A stretch of DNA of 55,300 nt from a virus (taxonomy: Duplodnaviria; Caudoviricetes), in the IMG/VR virus record IMGVR_UViG_3300038797_000105, positions 1 through 55,300 of that record; one strand, given 5' to 3'. The position numbers and the translations under genes are program-made. The notes beneath the pieces are model-generated. The model searched no databases. It saw only the letters and a program-made list of their open reading frames with translations, and was not told the DNA's origin. This document shows, piece after piece, positions 6,681 through 51,570 of the stretch. Numbering within the stretch: position 1 is the first letter of the stretch; the number at the start of each line of letters is the position of its first letter.

Positions 6681-8933
6681 TTAAGGGTTCAGAACTGCCA
6701 GCGCGCTTACGGCATCCGCGCGGCGGATTCGGTCGCCGTCCAGGTAGCGAGTGGAAGCAACAAATCCGGCCTTCACATCTACTGGCCCCCACGAGTATCC
6801 ACCGCGCCACTGGTAGCGCTCGCCTGCGGCAAGAGCGATGTAGTTCGGCGTGGTCGGGTTACGGACCAGCGGCCTGTTATATGCGGTGGTGTATTGCTTG
6901 GTCGATCCATCGCCGCCGCCCCGGATCATCCCACGCACAGGATCAACCTGACGGCTTTTCGCAATGCCGTACTCGCGGTCAATCCAAGCCGTCAATTGGC
7001 CATTGACGCTCGTCGTGATCACGGCCCACGCGTCGGGGTAGTCGATCGCGTTTCCAGAGTTAACCTTTCCATCCCAGTCGATAGGCTCGGGAAACTGGCC
7101 GCCGAGGTAGAACAGCTTGTCGTTCACGTTCGTAGTAACGATCTGACATGCATAGTCGATATACAGCTGCAGGTCTTCCAGCGCTAGGTAATCGACGTGG
7201 ACATTTGCTGCTCCCGGTACGAAGTCCACCTGCAGGCTCTGAAGCAGGCAGTAACGGTTTAGGCTGACGGTGTTGTTGGCCATCAGCTTGTTGACCACGT
7301 AACAGACAAGCTTGTCAGCCGTTCCGGAGTCGCCGGCCTTAAGCGGTACGCCATCCGCTTCCATCACGAACGAGACACTCTGCGCGGTCTTCAGATCGTT
7401 TACGAGATGATTGCCCCCCGTAAACTCCAGCGGGATTCTCCCGTCGCCATTATTTGCAGCCTCGAACGTGACCGGCGGAAGCCAATCGGTAGTACTTGTC
7501 ACCGTGACTCCACCATTCCTCAATGCCTGGATGAAGTTTGCCAGGTTGTTCGCGCCATTCAGTCCAAACTTGAATCCGCGAGTTCCAACTCCGTCCGGCC
7601 AGCTCAGATTGACGCTGCTAGCGGTCGCATCCACTTCATAGGTGATCCGAGAGCTGCCAGAGCTCGGAGCAGACAACGGCCACTCATAGCACGCGGGATC
7701 AATGACCTGTGAGTAGCCGTTCTGCGGGACGAAGTTCATCCCGTACTGCAATCCATAGGTCTGCAGCTTCGAAGCGTCCAGTGTGACCTCAATCCGGACG
7801 TCTGATTTGGTTTTGAGCAGGATCGTTTGAATGCCGAGCGTGCGGTCGATCGTAGGCTGTACATCGGTCAAGGTGGCAATGGTGGTCGCCGCACTGATGA
7901 TCGAGGCGTCGTAGCCGACAATGTCGACTTCCTCAATGATCCAGTTATCGGCAGCGGGAACCACATCGGCGTTGCCGTTCTGGAAGTAGCGCAGGCCGTA
8001 GTACTTGCCACGCTTAGCGTTGATCACCCGAGCATGCAGAATAACGAGCGTCTGCAGCTTGTTCGGCGCTGACACCCCACCGCCTCGGCTCGTCGACCTG
8101 AACGGCGCCAGCTGCCCAGAGTTGATGCTGATCGAGCTTGCGCTTTCGCTCTTCGCCGGGATGTACCGGCTTGGGTCGATGATATAGCTGTAACCTGGCT
8201 GCTCAGAGCTGTTCGCCGCGATCGGTGTACCTAACGCCGGTAGCTCAGCAGTATCAAGCGAAATCAGAACGCGAAGGTCGCTGACAACGGAGCTCGACAG
8301 AAGAACCGACTGGATACCATCTCGAGTGATGGTCGGCGTGGTCGCGTCTGTGATGTCGATCACGCTGGTTGCCGCGTTCGCCGCCGTCGCGTAGTTGGCT
8401 TGATCGATCTCTTCGATTCGCCAACCGTCGGGCTTGGCACCTGCCACTTGTGAGTTGCCGTTCACGTAATACGCGAGACGGTAGTACTTGCCGGCTCGCG
8501 CGCCGATGATGCAGATGTTTAGGATTGCCTTGCTGAATGCGGTGGGCTCAGCGCTGGTAACCCCGTTGCGAGTCATCTTGCGCAGCGGATAGACCTTGCC
8601 GCGGTTGATGGTCAGGGAATCCGAGTTCCAGGAAAGAATTGAAGAGATCTCGACAGCCACTCCGGCGTCATTTCGATAGCGCGTCTCTGCCTTATCGCCC
8701 GTCGCCGGCACCGTGAAGAAACGGTTGTTCGTGCCTGTTCCGCTGGTGGCGGTGAGGCCTGCCGCGACCGTTGTGTACACGCCCATGCTCGCGAGGAATT
8801 CGGCATAGATCTTTTTCAGCGTCGGCTTGGTGATGCCGTTGATGGTGACGAAGTCCTCGTCGGACAGAAACAGCGTGCTGCCAAGGGCGACAAGCTGGTT
8901 GAACAGCTGCAGAGATTCTGCGCCGGTGGCCAT
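6681..8933 (-). CDS. Tail fiber/spike receptor-binding protein with internal duplicated domain
   Basis: 750 aa, follows central tail protein, beta-rich. Confidence 0.7.
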   Translation of the reverse strand: MATGAESLQLFNQLVALGSTLFLSDEDFVTINGITKPTLKKIYAEFLASMGVYTTVAAGLTATSGTGTNNRFFTVPATGDKAETRYRNDAGVAVEISSILSWNSDSLTINRGKVYPLRKMTRNGVTSAEPTAFSKAILNICIIGARAGKYYRLAYYVNGNSQVAGAKPDGWRIEEIDQANYATAANAATSVIDITDATTPTITRDGIQSVLLSSSVVSDLRVLISLDTAELPALGTPIAANSSEQPGYSYIIDPSRYIPAKSESASSISINSGQLAPFRSTSRGGGVSAPNKLQTLVILHARVINAKRGKYYGLRYFQNGNADVVPAADNWIIEEVDIVGYDASIISAATTIATLTDVQPTIDRTLGIQTILLKTKSDVRIEVTLDASKLQTYGLQYGMNFVPQNGYSQVIDPACYEWPLSAPSSGSSRITYEVDATASSVNLSWPDGVGTRGFKFGLNGANNLANFIQALRNGGVTVTSTTDWLPPVTFEAANNGDGRIPLEFTGGNHLVNDLKTAQSVSFVMEADGVPLKAGDSGTADKLVCYVVNKLMANNTVSLNRYCLLQSLQVDFVPGAANVHVDYLALEDLQLYIDYACQIVTTNVNDKLFYLGGQFPEPIDWDGKVNSGNAIDYPDAWAVITTSVNGQLTAWIDREYGIAKSRQVDPVRGMIRGGGDGSTKQYTTAYNRPLVRNPTTPNYIALAAGERYQWRGGYSWGPVDVKAGFVASTRYLDGDRIRRADAVSALAVLNP

Positions 8934-8950
8934 AGTTCTTCCTCTTCAAA

Positions 8951-8964
8951 TCCCTGAACAGGGA
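8951..8964. promoter_or_regulatory. TCCCT-N4-AGGGA palindrome
   Basis: TCCCTGAACAGGGA; same motif at 35968 and 35994. Confidence 0.4.
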
Positions 8965-8974
8965 CTGGTCTTAA

Positions 8975-11900
8975 TCAGGCGGGCGTCTGGTCGTCGTAGG
9001 TGTAAACGCGGGTGTCGTAGGGCATGCCTTTCATTGCAACTGCACCGTCTCTACCTGGGTCAGAGCTGGTGATGAGAACCGGGTATGCCCAGCGAGGCGC
9101 GGGGCCGAACAGGATGTGCGGCGGCTCTAGCGAGCCATCGGTCAAGGGTGTGAAGCCCAGGGCATCGACCCTGACCACGTACTCGTTCACCTGAGTGGCG
9201 GTGAATGGCCCGGCCAGCGTGCCGTCAAGCTTGCGCACGCCTACCAGGTGCTCGCCTCCGGCTGCCCAGTTGTACGGCTCGGACGAGTGCAAATAGGTGC
9301 CGAGGTCAGTCACTTGGAAGTCGAGCAGGATGGCGCTCTGGCAACGCTTCGGCGCGTCATCAGCCACGGCGGCAAAGCTCAGGTAGCCGCTGTTGCTGCC
9401 GTCCATCTCGGTTTCCCAGGTGTACACGTCAGTGCGGAACTTCTGATGCCCGCGCCGGCGCATGCCGAACCGCCAGGCACGGGTCTTGTCGCTGAACCCC
9501 GGCATCTTGATCTTCTCGACCTTGGTACCCAGATCCCCCGGCCATCGGCACTCGACCGTTTCCCACGCCCAGGTGCTGCGTGAGAAGTACTCCACATCCA
9601 CGCCGTCGAAGTCGTTGATCGACGGCATGGCGCCGCTGATCTTCAGCATCTTGGTCATGTTCTGTGGTGAGTAGGTCTGCGTTTTTGGGCCGTAGGAGAC
9701 GTCGAATGCAGCCCGCGCACCGTCCCGAACCGGGCGCAACAGGCCCCGGAATGTCACCAGTTCGCCAAAGCCACAGGCCAGGGCGTTGTTGATCATGTCC
9801 TTGACCGTGATCGTGGAGTCGAGCGTCTCGTCGTAGGTGTCGCCGCGCGCAACGCAGATATCGTGGAAGGCCTGCCATTCAGGCAAGTCCAAGTCATCGT
9901 CGGTGTAGCCGCGCTGCTTCAGCTGGTAGATGCACCACGGAACGATGTCGCGGGTTGGCCCGGTACCGCCATCCATCAGCGGCAGAACTCGCGTAGCCTC
10001 GACACTGATTTGGCTTTCCGACTGAGCCGACAGACGATCCCCGCCACGAATGTTGCAGGTCATGACCGTCAGCCCAGGGTAACTGGTCGGCGAGTTCTGC
10101 ATGCGGCCGCGCAACGCGGTCCATGTCGCATCATCCCGAGCTTCTTCGTTTACGCGGCCAGGGCGATCAACATACAGCTCTCGAATCCTGCACTCTGGGC
10201 GCATTGGATACGGCGGTGTCGTTCGGTTGGTGAAGCCCTGTGCATCAAGAGAGCCGCCGGTGTGTGCCTTCTCAATGACGGTCCAATCACCAGCTACATC
10301 CATGTCGCGGTATTCGAACACATGGTACGCGGTGACCTCGTAGATCTGGCCCTCTCGACCAATGCCGCACAATCCGTTGGCAAACGTGACCGTCCACTCG
10401 ATCTCGGTGACCTTCTCACCCTCTGGACAACAGGCAACCGGCCCGCGATAGCCGCCCTGCAGGTTCGATGGATCCAGCGTGATCAGGCCATTCACCGTCT
10501 GCATGGCGTTGAAGCCTGGCCATCCGGTGTCGGCAGCCCCTGAAGAGGCTAGGCGCTCGACCTCGAGCAGGCTGGCACTGAAGGCTGTGATCCGATACCG
10601 CAGGCCACGCGGTCCGATGGTTGCCAGGCCCTGGCCCAGCGCCAAGCCGACCACTGGCGAGCCGCCGTCGTAGTCTAGAGTCATCTCGGCTGGCTGCTCC
10701 GGGATGGCACTGGTGGTGGCCGTGCCGGTGACGCCCACTGGCGAGGCGCCCAAGATAGTCGTCGCGCCAGTTGCGGTGATGGCCTGGCCGGCGAACGGTG
10801 TCAGCTCGACAATGCGCAGCACACTGCCGCTCACTTGCGCCTGGAACGGCTTACCGCTGAACTGCGTATTGAGCGCCGATACCAGCCCGGACAGGTTGGT
10901 AGTCGCGGTGTTCAGCGTGATCGGGTAGCTAGTCGCGCCGCGGAACAAGGTGAAGCTCAGCGGGGTGACGTTGAAGTCGTACCGGGTTGGCGCCGCTGAA
11001 CCGGTCAGCATCGATGCCGTGCCAGGGTTGGCCGGCACTGCAGGACTGTATGGCGTGTAGCTGTGCACGACGTACAGGCCAGCATTCGCACCGGCCACCT
11101 CAATCAGCATGCCTGGCACGGGATTGAGCATCTCAAGCGGGCCACGAATGATGTCACGCCCCGCGCCGCCGTCGATCACCGTGTAGGCGTACGGGGCAAG
11201 CGCGCGGATGATGATCCCGTTCGACCAGTCGTCCGGGAACTGGCCGGAGCCGCCCGGAACGCTGATAGTTTTACCAGCGAACTGATACGCCGAAGCTGTG
11301 GCGGACCGGGTAATGTCGGTGGCCACGGTCAATTCCAGACCAGCAGAGCCGCTGGAACTGGCCCCGACCTCTGGTGCATTGAACCAATTGATATGAGCCG
11401 GATCGGCGCTCAGGTCGGCCCCTGGCGGGTAGATGGTGAAGGTTGCGTCAGCACCAAGAGATATGAGGGGAGTTTCGCCAACCTTCACCTTCGCCAGCGG
11501 GATGTCGTATTCGCCCTCGCCTATGTACAGCAGCATCTCCACACGCAAGTCTCGCGGTGCGACATGGGCGCTACGCGGCTGTGCGAGGTAGGAGCCATAG
11601 GTGCGCTGATGGCCGGCGATCTGTCGCACCGGGTCGCCCAGCTTGACCTTGTTGCCCTTTGCGCTTGCGTCCATCAGCGGGTCGCCCTGCTGCGTGCCCG
11701 CACTGGACGGCATGCCAGGCATCTTGGGCATAACCAGCTTGGCGAATGCCTTCACCCCAGCAAAAAGGGTGAACCCCATGAAGGCCTGCTCCAGACCTTT
11801 CGGCTCCCGATAGATCTGCAACAAGTCGACAGGCTTGAATTTCACCTTGTGCCACAGGTGCTGCTCGATCACCTCATCGTTCAGTACCACGCTGATTGGC

Positions 11901-28560: not shown

Positions 28561-28983
28561 TCAGAATATCGGGTAGGTGGACGCCAGCTTAACGCCAATG
28601 TGACAAGCGAAAGCGAGGAAGATCGTCCTGTTACGCCATCGATAAAAGAAACCGGTTTTGTCGCCGATTCCTTTGGTGGCTTCAAGGGCCTTGGAGAAAT
28701 CTCTACCTGGGTTTCCTGCGCACAGCTCTAGGTAGCGAGCGTTCATCTTTAGGAGGTGAATTGTCCAGGCGATCCGCTTGAAACCCAACCATGCAGACAG
28801 GACAAGCACCAGAAGCGGCAGAAGCAACAAGGTCTCTTCATTCCAACCCAGCTGTGCATACTTCTGCGTCTGTGCGAGGTATGCGGACGCCGCCAGTGTT
28901 GCCCCCAACACGAACTGGTCGAAGTTCAGGCTTCCCTTGTAGTAATGGTCATCTAAAGCAGTCACTCGCGGATCTTCAATCAT
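28561..28983 (-). CDS. Membrane protein moron
   Basis: GGAG RBS; 2-3 hydrophobic segments; lower GC. Confidence 0.65.
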   Translation of the reverse strand: MIEDPRVTALDDHYYKGSLNFDQFVLGATLAASAYLAQTQKYAQLGWNEETLLLLPLLVLVLSAWLGFKRIAWTIHLLKMNARYLELCAGNPGRDFSKALEATKGIGDKTGFFYRWRNRTIFLAFACHIGVKLASTYPIF

Positions 28984-29016
28984 GCTTGGCTCCCCGCCCT
29001 GTACGAGGCGAGAATG

Positions 29017-29208
29017 TTACCGCGTCACCATCTTGTGCGTCTCGGCATAGGCATGACCATGCAGCAGGCCAACCAGCAGCCCCTGCGGAAGGCCGGCTTC
29101 CTTGGCGGCATCAATCGCCTTCACCAGGGCAGCATCGAGCTCGGCAACCGCGTGGACGATATCCATGCCGACCGGGAGCTCATGGCGTATGCGAGTGACG
29201 TTGTTCAT
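29017..29208 (-). CDS. Small hypothetical protein
   Basis: 63 aa, GAGG RBS. Confidence 0.65.
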   Translation of the reverse strand: MNNVTRIRHELPVGMDIVHAVAELDAALVKAIDAAKEAGLPQGLLVGLLHGHAYAETHKMVTR

Positions 29209-48600: not shown

Positions 48601-49251
48601 TCAAGCTTCAGCGCTCGTGAAATCTCGCTTGTCGGCAAGCGCAACCTTGTACTTTTCAAGAGCTTCTTGGACTACTTCATTATCACCCGTAATTTCGGAA
48701 TACTGATATTTAACCCAGCGATCTTGAACTCGCTTGTAACGCTCATCAACTTCGCGCAAACGACGGACCACACCCTGAATCCGTATCATCTTCGTTATCA
48801 CAACTGAATGGGACACTACAAGATCGTAACTTCCCAACTCATGAGCCGGAATTCCTTTCAGCATTTCCATGTTACTTTCAAAAAGTCCGCCCACGTGATA
48901 GTCCCACATCAATAGAAAACCATTCAACGTCGGCCCACCCTCAACAAACTCAGACAACTTTCTGACATTTTTGCAAGCGCTTTCCATCACAGCCAAATAG
49001 GCACCCTCACGAAGCTCTGCCCTCTTTGCATCCGTGTTTATTTGGCTAGCAATTTGTTTCCGCCCTACTGCTAATGCCCCCCAAATCGCACCGATAGAGC
49101 CAAAAGCCTGAACCCAACTAGCAAGCTCGCTTTTACTAAGGTCATACATCCTGATCAAAAGAATAGACACAAAGCAAATCGCAAGAGCCAAACAAATATT
49201 CTGAACTGATAGCCAGGGCTTCAATAGGCTCTTGCCGTACTCGTTAAGCAT
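48601..49251 (-). CDS. Membrane-anchored protein (antisense moron)
   Basis: Two N-terminal TMs, ASWVQAFGSIGAI motif; low GC. Confidence 0.7.
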   Translation of the reverse strand: MLNEYGKSLLKPWLSVQNICLALAICFVSILLIRMYDLSKSELASWVQAFGSIGAIWGALAVGRKQIASQINTDAKRAELREGAYLAVMESACKNVRKLSEFVEGGPTLNGFLLMWDYHVGGLFESNMEMLKGIPAHELGSYDLVVSHSVVITKMIRIQGVVRRLREVDERYKRVQDRWVKYQYSEITGDNEVVQEALEKYKVALADKRDFTSAEA

Positions 49252-49300: not shown

Positions 49301-50224
49301 ATGCCCACAGCAATCGACCTGTTCGCCGGCCTCGGCGGATGGAGCACCGGCGCGCGCGCCGCAGGCGTCCAGGTTCTCTGGGCGGCGAACCACTGGCCTG
49401 ATGCCGTGAAGTGGCACAGCGCCAACCATCCCGACACGCAGCATGTTTGCCAAGACTTGCACCAGGCGCGCTGGGAGCAGGTGCCGGCGCACGACATCCT
49501 GCTTGCCTCACCATGCTGCCAGGGCCACGCCAAGGCCCGCGGGAAGAAGTCGGGCAACCCGGAACACGACGCTTCGCGCTCGACGGCCTGGGCCCCGGTG
49601 TCGGCGCTTGAGTTCCACCGGCCGCAGGCGGCAGTGATCGAGAACGTGCCGGAGTTCACCGACTGGCTGCTCTACCCAGCTTGGTTGCAGGCCATCCAAG
49701 CGATGGGCTACCAGTGTGCGCCGCACATCGTGGACTGCGCCGACCTCGGCGTGCCGCAACACCGGGTGCGCCTGTTCATGGTCCTGACGCGCAGCAAGGC
49801 CCCACTGATGCTGCAGTTACCGCAGGAGCGGCATGTGCCGGCAAGCAGCTTCCTCGACTTCGACGCCGGCCGCTGGTCACAGATCGAGAAACCAGGCCGG
49901 GCCCAGGCCACCCTCGACAGGGTGCGCAACGGGCGCCAGCGCTTCGGCGACCGGTTCATCATGCCCTACTACGGCAAGGGCTCCGGCACCACTGGCCGCG
50001 ACATCAACCGGCCGATCGGCACCATCACCACCCTGGACCGCTGGGCCCTGGTCGACGGCGACCGCATGCGGATGCTCAGCGCCGGCGAGGCCCTGGCCGC
50101 GATGTCGTTCCCGGCTGACACCCTTCGCCCGGACAACCACCGGCTGACCATGCACATGGCCGGAAATGCGGTACCGCCACTGGCCGGACAGCGAGTGATT
50201 GAATCTCTGTTGGCGGCAGCATAG
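49301..50224 (+). CDS. DNA cytosine-C5 methyltransferase
   Basis: DLFAGLGG, SPCCQG, ENV, QHRVR, GNAV motifs. Confidence 0.93.
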   Translation: MPTAIDLFAGLGGWSTGARAAGVQVLWAANHWPDAVKWHSANHPDTQHVCQDLHQARWEQVPAHDILLASPCCQGHAKARGKKSGNPEHDASRSTAWAPVSALEFHRPQAAVIENVPEFTDWLLYPAWLQAIQAMGYQCAPHIVDCADLGVPQHRVRLFMVLTRSKAPLMLQLPQERHVPASSFLDFDAGRWSQIEKPGRAQATLDRVRNGRQRFGDRFIMPYYGKGSGTTGRDINRPIGTITTLDRWALVDGDRMRMLSAGEALAAMSFPADTLRPDNHRLTMHMAGNAVPPLAGQRVIESLLAAA

Positions 50225-50323: not shown

Positions 50324-51445
50324 TCAAGCCTCAATCAGACCCTCGCGCTCAAGCACCTGTCTAATATCCTCAAACTTTGCAGTTATATTTCCCTTGGGGA
50401 AGCGAATTTGACCAAGACCTTGAATGTTAGAGAATTCCTCGCAGCCTTCTTCCAGCAAAACAATAGCCTTTGTGAATCCTAGGCGGCCTTGAAACAAGCC
50501 CACCTCGTGAATAACATTGGTTCTAGCTTCAACCTTGCCATCGACTTGCTCATCCTCTGCAGTCATAACTATAAATGCAACAGCTGCCGAATCGAGCATT
50601 TGAGTTAAGCGCTGAATGTTTGTTATGCCCGCGACAGGCACTCGATTGAATTCGTCATATGGAAGCCCTAAACGATCCTTAACGAAATCTTTCAAGTCTC
50701 GCCATACTTGCGATCGTCCGTGACCAATAAAAACGTTGGTACCAACTACAGATTCCTGCATTTTTTTCTTCTCAGAACGAAGCGAATAGGAATAGGCCTT
50801 TCTTAGCACTGGCAAAAGACGCTCGCAAGCTAATAGGGGAGACTTTAAAGCTACGCATTTTGCCCACAGCGCGAGGTGCGGTGGAGTGCGCAGGCCTTGG
50901 CTAAATGCCAAAGAATCACGGCTAGTCACCTGCGCCGGACGCGCATGATTGATGAAATCTTTTTCAGCAAGCAAATGTACTTTCTTCAGCTCTTCGGAAA
51001 GAGTTTTATAGAAACCGTCAGCAAGCGCTTCAGCCTGCACAACCAGAATCACATCCAGTTCTTCTTTGACTGATTTGAATAGCGCATCACCTTCTGCGCA
51101 GAACAGCTCTATTTGAGTAAGATCCGGATTTCCAGCCATCTCCACAATTGCTTCATAAATACCATCGAACTCATATTCGAGCCACGGACCATTAGTCCCA
51201 CGCCCGTACATTTCTTGCATACCCCATTCGGAACTAAAATGATGGCCGGGGTGTGGGACTTCTAAATTTTCATAGTAGATATTTGAATGATAACCGATCC
51301 AAGAACCACTCCATGCCTTCCCAGCCTTATTTTGCGCCTCTAACAGCGATTCCACTCCGGAGTAGTCAATCCGCTCACCTTTTTCTAAGTAAAGCTCGAC
51401 CTTTGCTAGAAGGGACTTCAACTCCGAGCTGACACCATCATCCAT
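50324..51445 (-). CDS. TIR-domain protein (CAP12/Pycsar-type TIR) with unknown N-terminal domain
   Basis: VFIGHGR, AFIVMTAED, ARTNVIHEVGLFQGRLG, FSNIQGL. Confidence 0.88.
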   Translation of the reverse strand: MDDGVSSELKSLLAKVELYLEKGERIDYSGVESLLEAQNKAGKAWSGSWIGYHSNIYYENLEVPHPGHHFSSEWGMQEMYGRGTNGPWLEYEFDGIYEAIVEMAGNPDLTQIELFCAEGDALFKSVKEELDVILVVQAEALADGFYKTLSEELKKVHLLAEKDFINHARPAQVTSRDSLAFSQGLRTPPHLALWAKCVALKSPLLACERLLPVLRKAYSYSLRSEKKKMQESVVGTNVFIGHGRSQVWRDLKDFVKDRLGLPYDEFNRVPVAGITNIQRLTQMLDSAAVAFIVMTAEDEQVDGKVEARTNVIHEVGLFQGRLGFTKAIVLLEEGCEEFSNIQGLGQIRFPKGNITAKFEDIRQVLEREGLIEA

Positions 51446-51570
51446 TACAGCCTCCAGTAATTATGAGCCTTTAGGTGATTATTGCTCGTAGCTATCACAA
51501 AAACCATCCCGCCGCACATCGGCGCCTCAACCGCATCTCACTGCCGCGATATGGCGGCCAAGGAACGACC

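Follow-up and report, generated by a model that had tools for sequence, protein, structure and literature searches.

A one-gene sensor and TIR effector, probably an abortive-infection module, carried by a Pseudomonas siphovirus-like prophage

Bacterial TIR proteins that act as single genes have been described in several settings. The closest validated case is SpbK of ICEBs1 in Bacillus subtilis, a single-gene TIR NADase of 267 aa with a 94-residue N-terminal domain, and this domain is reported to bind the portal protein YonE of phage SPbeta, whereupon NAD+ collapses and the infection aborts, with the catalytic Glu being essential (PMC11984713). Since SpbK has been validated in that study, the concept of a sensor and a TIR domain in one gene is already known. 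In addition, the single TIR proteins TIR-II, V, VI and IX of E. coli are reported to defend and to need the TIR active site (Wang et al., 2024; PMC11350192). The studied members of the CAP12/Pycsar-type TIR class are described as NADases that are activated by oligomerisation (10.64898/2026.04.30.722052). The PDC systems, which include a single-gene TIR protein of the same TIR subfamily, are presented as candidate systems (10.1101/2024.01.29.577857). The systematic TIR survey of Yirmiya et al. left out stand-alone TIR proteins (10.64898/2025.12.03.692087).

Here, we describe a stand-alone TIR gene in a window of 55,300 bases, the whole stretch of DNA that was analysed, which is an IMG/VR provirus record rated complete by CheckV. 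PHROG matches indicate a siphovirus-like temperate phage with a large terminase, portal, head morphogenesis, tape measure and tail proteins, and with a CI-like repressor, Ant, an O-like initiator, NinG, RecT and HNH. A tyrosine integrase recognised by Pfam runs past the right end of the window. A 10-kb structural stretch gave megablast matches to 12 phage records, 11 of which are Pseudomonas phages, and the nearest protein homologues of the TIR protein also come from Pseudomonas. The TIR gene is located in the early region, where its neighbours lie on the other strand and a C5 DNA methylase gene converges with it. The ORF listing of the window gives a frame of 373 aa with an ATG start on the minus strand (50324-51445), and the best homologue in a word-index protein search reached E 1e-237, so that the gene is far beyond chance. 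The TIR gene bears the signature of an acquired moron because its GC is 0.463 and its GC3 is 0.433, compared with a window GC of 0.598 and a methylase-gene GC of 0.68. Its features are as follows.

50324..51445, minus strand: whole gene, 373 aa, an N-domain without curated family followed by a CAP12/Pycsar-type TIR
51510..51524, minus strand: terminator-like GC hairpin and T-run just upstream of the TIR gene, a consensus match only
51451..51455, minus strand: ribosome-binding site GGAGG, 5 nt upstream of the ATG, read from the sequence
50747..51445, minus strand: N-terminal domain, residues 1-233, a helical bundle with loop/beta inserts and no curated family
51170..51316, minus strand: conserved loop/beta insert, residues 44-92, with the motifs WSGSWxGYH..YY and PPPGxHFSxEWG and invariant G51, Y57 and Y58
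50870..50941, minus strand: second conserved loop, residues 169-192, with the motif P..SRD..A..QG...PPH and invariant D177, A180 and H190
50399..50737, minus strand: TIR domain, PF10137 match over residues 237-349; the conserved C-terminal helix continues to the stop codon at 50324
50504-50506, minus strand: GAG codon of the putative catalytic Glu314, within NVIHEVG (residues 310-316)

A simple consensus scan of the TIR gene's own strand found no sigma-70-like promoter upstream of it. The hairpin at 51510..51524 may set the gene apart as a unit of its own, which is uncertain, as terminator-like sites are not enriched (one found against a mean of 2.2 in shuffles). The methylase (49301-50224, plus strand; PF00145, E 1e-35; GC 0.68, GC3 0.86) is an orphan with no restriction enzyme seen adjoining it, and its best PADLOC match is DrmMII (2.4e-42). 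On its far side is a low-GC, moron-like ORF (48601-49240, minus strand; GC 0.459, GC3 0.376) whose N-terminal part contains a hydrophobic segment. Pfam and PADLOC gave nothing for it, and its only match, to phrog_33632, is weak. In a related prophage (L082), the TIR gene occupies the equivalent site, next to a methylase and close to the integrase, and the methylase at the matching position is a different one of 713 aa. This layout suggested a three-gene cassette of TIR, DNA methylase and low-GC membrane ORF, which we rejected because the genes in third position are not related to each other (BLASTP E 18). Elsewhere in the window, a 135-aa ORF near the small terminase region (28791-29198, plus strand) has a GC3 of 0.38, against 0.6-0.85 in most genes, and may be another acquired accessory gene.

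The C-terminal part was assigned by profile and by fold. Pfam PF10137 (CAP12-PCTIR_TIR) matched residues 237-349 with an E of 4.4e-20 and 72.3 bits (cut-off 24.7). Glu314 is kept in at least 90% of 73 aligned full-length homologues, and in alignment its counterpart in the solved Cap12 chain 9lmq_A is the Glu of the NVVFEFG motif. A full-length AlphaFold model had a pLDDT of 90.6, and Foldseek matched its TIR part only, over 134-150 columns, to the TIR-STING chains 9lmq_D (2.4e-6) and 7un8_A (1.2e-5); it also returned the CMP N-glycosidase MilB (4jel, E 5.2e-3). Among 50,697 phage records, the sole match was a gene of Microcystis phage vB_MaeS-yong1 (MT855965.1, 3421-3687), which is 57% identical to TIR residues 280-368 and is annotated 'CMP/hydroxymethyl hydrolase'; it may be a mislabelled CAP12-type TIR.

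The N-terminal domain has no such relatives. Residues 1-233, about 233 in all, had no match in Pfam, NCBIfam or PADLOC, and phrog_16442 of PHROGs extends back only to residue 165. When folded alone with AF2, the domain gave a bundle of long helices with a pLDDT of 96.7 and a pTM of 0.88. Foldseek of this model returned nothing in the PDB (best E 1.0) or in BFVD (best E 0.65), and a wide VIA-align search returned only generic helical bundles of the vinculin/talin/FAT type at Z 8-10.7 over about 110 of 230 residues, a Z within the range common for helical proteins. An HEPN-like chain (1jog) appeared there at Z 8.1 and was rejected because the R-x4-6-H motif is absent from the sequence as judged by eye. 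The ESM Atlas search with the N-domain found its own family only, and by Pfam and fold search the domain is not of the STING, SAVED, cNMP-binding, CARF or SLOG fold. These results bear out the first-pass annotation, which had described a C-terminal TIR with a putative catalytic Glu, of the class of the Cap12 and Pycsar effectors (here PF10137, the NV..E.G motif and the TIR-STING fold matches, a class assignment by likeness), joined to an N-terminal part of about 230 aa without known family; the Foldseek search of that part, which it had proposed as a check, agrees with it.

Conservation within the N-domain is uneven. Mean pairwise identity is 22-24% in the helices, 53% in the loop of residues 44-92 and 46% in the loop of residues 169-192, compared to 63% in the TIR domain. 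In a 73-homologue alignment, the invariant residues of the N-domain are the six listed above, and W74, E73, W88, E90 and R176 are near-invariant in the two loops. The invariant loops would be compatible with a conserved pocket or with a relay that leads to the TIR domain. The N-domain as a whole changes fast. Among the 30 closest homologues, the TIR domains are 82-100% identical to that of the window's protein, whereas identity falls to 38-42% in the N-domain, to 17-35% in its helices and to 17-27% in helices 1-43, and one relative (P0002) has 98% identity in the TIR domain compared to 74% in the N-domain. From these alignments, a constrained effector with a fast-changing sensor would fit either an arms race or module shuffling.

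The N-domain is also joined to other effectors. A phmmer search with residues 1-230 against 1.84 billion representatives found 841 clusters at E ≤ 1e-3, of which 521 also reached E ≤ 1e-10. Fifty of 150 listed N-domain relatives were scanned with Pfam; none of the 50 had a Pfam family on the N-domain part, and the domain that follows it was PF10137 in 11 (some truncated), TIR_2 in two, GGDEF, a protein kinase and PNP_UDP_1 in one each, and no family in 34. Of 27 relatives that are short or without family, 12 are cut or frameshifted TIR forms, and five (P0122, P0123, P0155, P0175 and P0187) have one to three hydrophobic, transmembrane helices after the N-domain. The N-domain is joined to GGDEF, a PD-T4-6-like kinase or a PNP nucleosidase in P0156, P0158 and P0263, and it is preceded by an N-terminal extension of 120-190 residues in P0169 and P0256. 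In PADLOC, the C-terminal domain of the kinase fusion matches PD-T4-6 (2e-38), the PNP fusion matches the CBASS 'PN-superfamily' effector and PDC-M60C, and the TIR_2 fusion matches pAgo-associated, SAVED-TIR and ThsB models. A dedicated search for longer fused forms found none, which is weak evidence, and the kinase fusion itself has 667 aa. One N-domain joined to TIR, transmembrane, PNP or kinase outputs has the layout of an immune sensor module, and swapping among transmembrane, TIR and PNP effectors is a hallmark of abortive-infection systems such as CBASS and Pycsar. The GGDEF fusion could possibly have a plain signalling role.

The family is large and scattered. Of 8000 candidates scored in a word-index search, 6075 proteins reached E ≤ 0.001, and the best 120 of the 6075 all have PF10137, with lengths of 345-414 aa, query coverage of 88-100% and identity of 51-95%. 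The source names of the listed homologues include Pseudomonas, Verrucomicrobia, Binatia, Limnochorda, a cyanobacterium and Phycisphaerae, under the generic database names 'TIR domain-containing protein' or 'nucleotide-binding protein'. With one genome per species, a relative is encoded in at least 563 of 604 candidate stretches, and the 80 loci that were kept span many bacterial phyla and one Methanotrichaceae archaeon. Horizontal transfer fits this distribution because identity is high across phyla and the spread is patchy. The complete E. coli genomes include one carrier among 5426, and four plasmid records hold full-length copies (at least 80% coverage).

The surroundings of the gene were compared in 76 loci, after removal of four of the 80 in which the focal ORF was disrupted or fell short of 300 aa. 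Pfam was applied to 132 immediate neighbours, and the resulting family names were sorted by our own judgement. A defence-type immediate neighbour was found in about 19 of the 76 loci, as a raw count; these neighbours include N6/N4 methylases, Type ISP, Mrr, DpnI, SIR2_2, TIR_2, a second CAP12-type TIR, BrnT, PIN, HipA and AAA_21 with DUF4435 (an Abi-like ATPase). A mobile-element neighbour (integrases, Phage_GPA, Ash, IS200, relaxase, TraG or ICE proteins) was found in about 10, and defence and mobile neighbours together account for about 29 of the 76 loci. The remaining neighbours are less telling, as Pfam gave no family for 65 of the 132 and several are housekeeping genes. In two loci, a short CAP12-type TIR protein directly adjoins the family member (L021:7071-7874 and L073:5554-6414), and the former is a full PDC-S35 match at 328 bits; from this adjacency, different stand-alone TIR genes stack side by side.

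Viral carriers are diverse. IMG/VR holds 17 matching loci, seven of which include the N-domain, and in six of seven viral loci (the exception is L086) the GC of the TIR gene is below that of most neighbouring ORFs. Besides the related prophage described above, the TIR gene lies between a Q antiterminator and lysis genes in L083 and adjoins packaging genes in L086 and L088. Two further loci (L084 and L085) are filamentous-phage-like, and the family gene travels alone on these contigs of about 8-9 kb. The single E. coli carrier (L099, the O55:H7 DEC5E chromosome, locus 7919-10016) has the gene beside hipBA, where a filamentous prophage ends. All three are integrated filamentous prophages with replication protein II/X, a Zot-family protein and a secretin, and they share the order of an HTH regulator, a 139-aa phrog_4174 protein and the TIR gene at the prophage end.

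No partner gene accompanies the TIR gene. Six-frame profile searches of the 55.3-kb provirus record found no SMODS, Guanylate_cyc or cNMP_binding domain, and none for SAVED or STING_LBD, for which the blanks are weak as the control genomes were silent too. Furthermore, 527 neighbour ORFs from the 76 loci, taken as up to four longest non-overlapping frames per side (crude calls), were clustered, and the largest common neighbour family spans three loci.

Taken together, these results suggest that the gene is probably a one-gene abortive-infection module, consisting of a sensor and a TIR effector and carried as a moron by the Pseudomonas siphovirus-like prophage. We favour this reading because the studied members of the TIR class are oligomerisation-activated NADases and Glu314 is conserved, because no partner recurs beyond three of the 76 loci, and because the contexts are mobile or defence-like (about 29 of the 76 loci, prophages, plasmids and the PDC-S35 neighbour). 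It is further favoured because fusions link the N-domain to other effector types too and it diverges faster than the TIR domain, as in an arms race, because the GC of the TIR gene looks foreign (0.463 against 0.598 here, and in six of seven viral loci), and because SpbK offers a precedent for the same logic. We infer that the protein would be inactive in the resting lysogen, and that a cue of infection by another phage would be recognised by the N-terminal helical domain. Recognition would then gather the TIR domains into an oligomer that is active, as with other TIRs of the CAP12/Pycsar type, and Glu314-dependent hydrolysis would deplete NAD+, so that the infected cell would stop before phage progeny are made. 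For the prophage in the window, this would amount to superinfection exclusion that benefits the lysogen.

The cue could plausibly be a phage protein or another macromolecule, and a small molecule or a host-state cue is a more tentative choice. Two points speak against direct recognition of a phage protein: the characterised PF10137 TIRs are all switched on by a nucleotide signal, and Tyr/Asp/His loops that stay invariant across phyla look more like a small-molecule pocket or a catalytic site than like a surface that tracks variable phage proteins. The abortive-infection reading itself is weakened by the GGDEF and kinase fusions, which could be ordinary signal transduction, by the many neighbours that lack a Pfam family or are housekeeping genes, and by the blank promoter scan.

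These same loops lead to a broader, and doubtful, proposal, in which the N-domain is a new and widespread class of immune sensor. Within the variable bundle, a pocket of invariant Tyr, Trp, Asp and His residues would recognise either a conserved small molecule that derives from infection or some feature universal to infection, with no dedicated signal synthase, and the bundle would serve six or more effector types (TIR of two kinds, transmembrane, PNP, kinase and GGDEF) in bacteria and at least one archaeon. The N-domain does behave like a portable sensor for several immune effectors. If the proposal were true, the family would form a partner-less 'receptor-effector' branch parallel to the CBASS and Pycsar effectors and would point to a danger signal. 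Finding the trigger would add a recognition module to bacterial innate immunity, and it would also explain why mobile elements as dissimilar as 8-kb filamentous phages and ICEs carry the domain. A family of thousands has been left unexamined because the survey of Yirmiya et al. set stand-alone TIR proteins aside (10.64898/2025.12.03.692087).

It is unlikely that the protein is instead a receptor-effector whose signal, a diffusible nucleotide or metabolite, comes from an enzyme encoded elsewhere, by the host or by the infecting phage, with the N-domain loops as the ligand pocket. The studied PF10137 TIR effectors, Cap12 and PycTIR, are all ligand-gated according to the naming of the family and a recent report (10.64898/2026.04.30.722052). 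A pocket would be consistent with Y57, Y58, D177 and H190 being invariant, and W74, E73, W88, E90 and R176 nearly so, in two loops on a variable scaffold, and the effector set of TIR, transmembrane and PNP mirrors CBASS and Pycsar. However, neither a cyclase nor any other conserved adjoining gene was found in the 76 loci, and SMODS exceeded the cut-off in only two of 30 carrier genomes (28 fell below; some genomes are incomplete). The gene being alone on filamentous-phage contigs of 8-9 kb also argues against such a receptor, as does an N-domain that has none of the STING, SAVED, cNMP-binding, CARF and SLOG folds and whose helices evolve fast. The first-pass annotation had proposed a single-gene system with no cyclase, STING or cNMP-binding partner in the window, in which the N-terminal domain is the sensor. 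The blank six-frame searches (weak for STING), the limit of three loci per neighbour family, the solitary carriage on diverse mobile elements and the 28 genomes without SMODS uphold its first two points, and the third is supported indirectly by the fusions to several immune-type effectors and by an N-domain that evolves much faster than the TIR domain.

A non-immune role, either as a toxin for the stabilisation of, or addiction to, mobile elements or as a regulatory NAD-consuming enzyme that answers a cellular cue, appears quite improbable. The TIR gene is indeed found on or near mobile DNA, and GGDEF and kinase are outputs typical of signal transduction. However, no conserved antitoxin-like small gene adjoins the TIR gene among the 76 loci, the best matches of the kinase and PNP fusions are defence models (PD-T4-6, 2e-38, and the PN effector of CBASS), and the swaps among transmembrane, TIR and PNP outputs are those expected of abortive infection. 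Finally, it is very improbable that the C-terminal domain acts without NAD+ depletion, as an N-glycosidase on another nucleotide (compare MilB 4jel at E 5.2e-3 and the 'CMP/hydroxymethyl hydrolase' label in MT855965.1) or as the source of a cADPR-type signal for a separate effector (Thoeris TIRs make signals; 10.64898/2025.12.03.692087), since by sequence and by fold the domain is closest to the NAD+-cleaving TIRs of Cap12 and TIR-STING and no effector gene accompanies the TIR gene.

Compared with the known systems, the one-gene abortive-infection module proposed here shares its effector with Cap12 and PycTIR, which have the same PF10137 subfamily and NV..E.G motif and, as TIR-STING chains, provide the best structural matches. 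It differs from Cap12, in the form of TIR-STING or TIR-SAVED, in having no STING or SAVED sensor domain and no CD-NTase operon, and it scored 35 and 29 bits with the NCBIfam Cap12 models, against cut-offs of 450. It differs from PycTIR in having no cNMP_binding domain and no adjacent pyrimidine cyclase, and the PADLOC match of 28 bits covers the TIR domain only. Membership of either group was rejected since such sensor domains and a cyclase are missing and the scores are far below the equivalog cut-offs. The best PADLOC match is PDC-S35, a single-gene TIR protein of the same TIR subfamily, and membership of this system was rejected as well, at 46 bits over residues 222-350 only, against 328 bits over the full length of a true member; hhalign against PDC-S35 aligned residues 232-370 only. 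Both PDC-S35 and PHROG 16442 are shorter CAP12-type TIR proteins. The E. coli proteins TIR-II, V, VI and IX are described with a TPR domain or as 'only a short TIR domain' (PMC11350192), in contrast to the N-domain of about 230 residues found here, and the family is unlikely to be among the 32 clusters tested by Wang et al., because it occurs in one of 5426 complete E. coli genomes. Keyword and accession searches, which cover main texts, found no paper on this N-domain and TIR family and no experiment on any member.

SpbK remains the nearest parallel. None of the PADLOC matches at E ≤ 0.01 was named SpbK. Like SpbK, the protein is encoded by one gene on a mobile element and joins an N-terminal sensor to a TIR domain that is C-terminal and has a catalytic Glu; unlike SpbK, its N-domain has about 233 residues and motifs of its own, and the likeness is one of architecture. 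By this analogy, the protein of the window most likely works like SpbK. The kind of system is known, and the sensor domain and the family are new.
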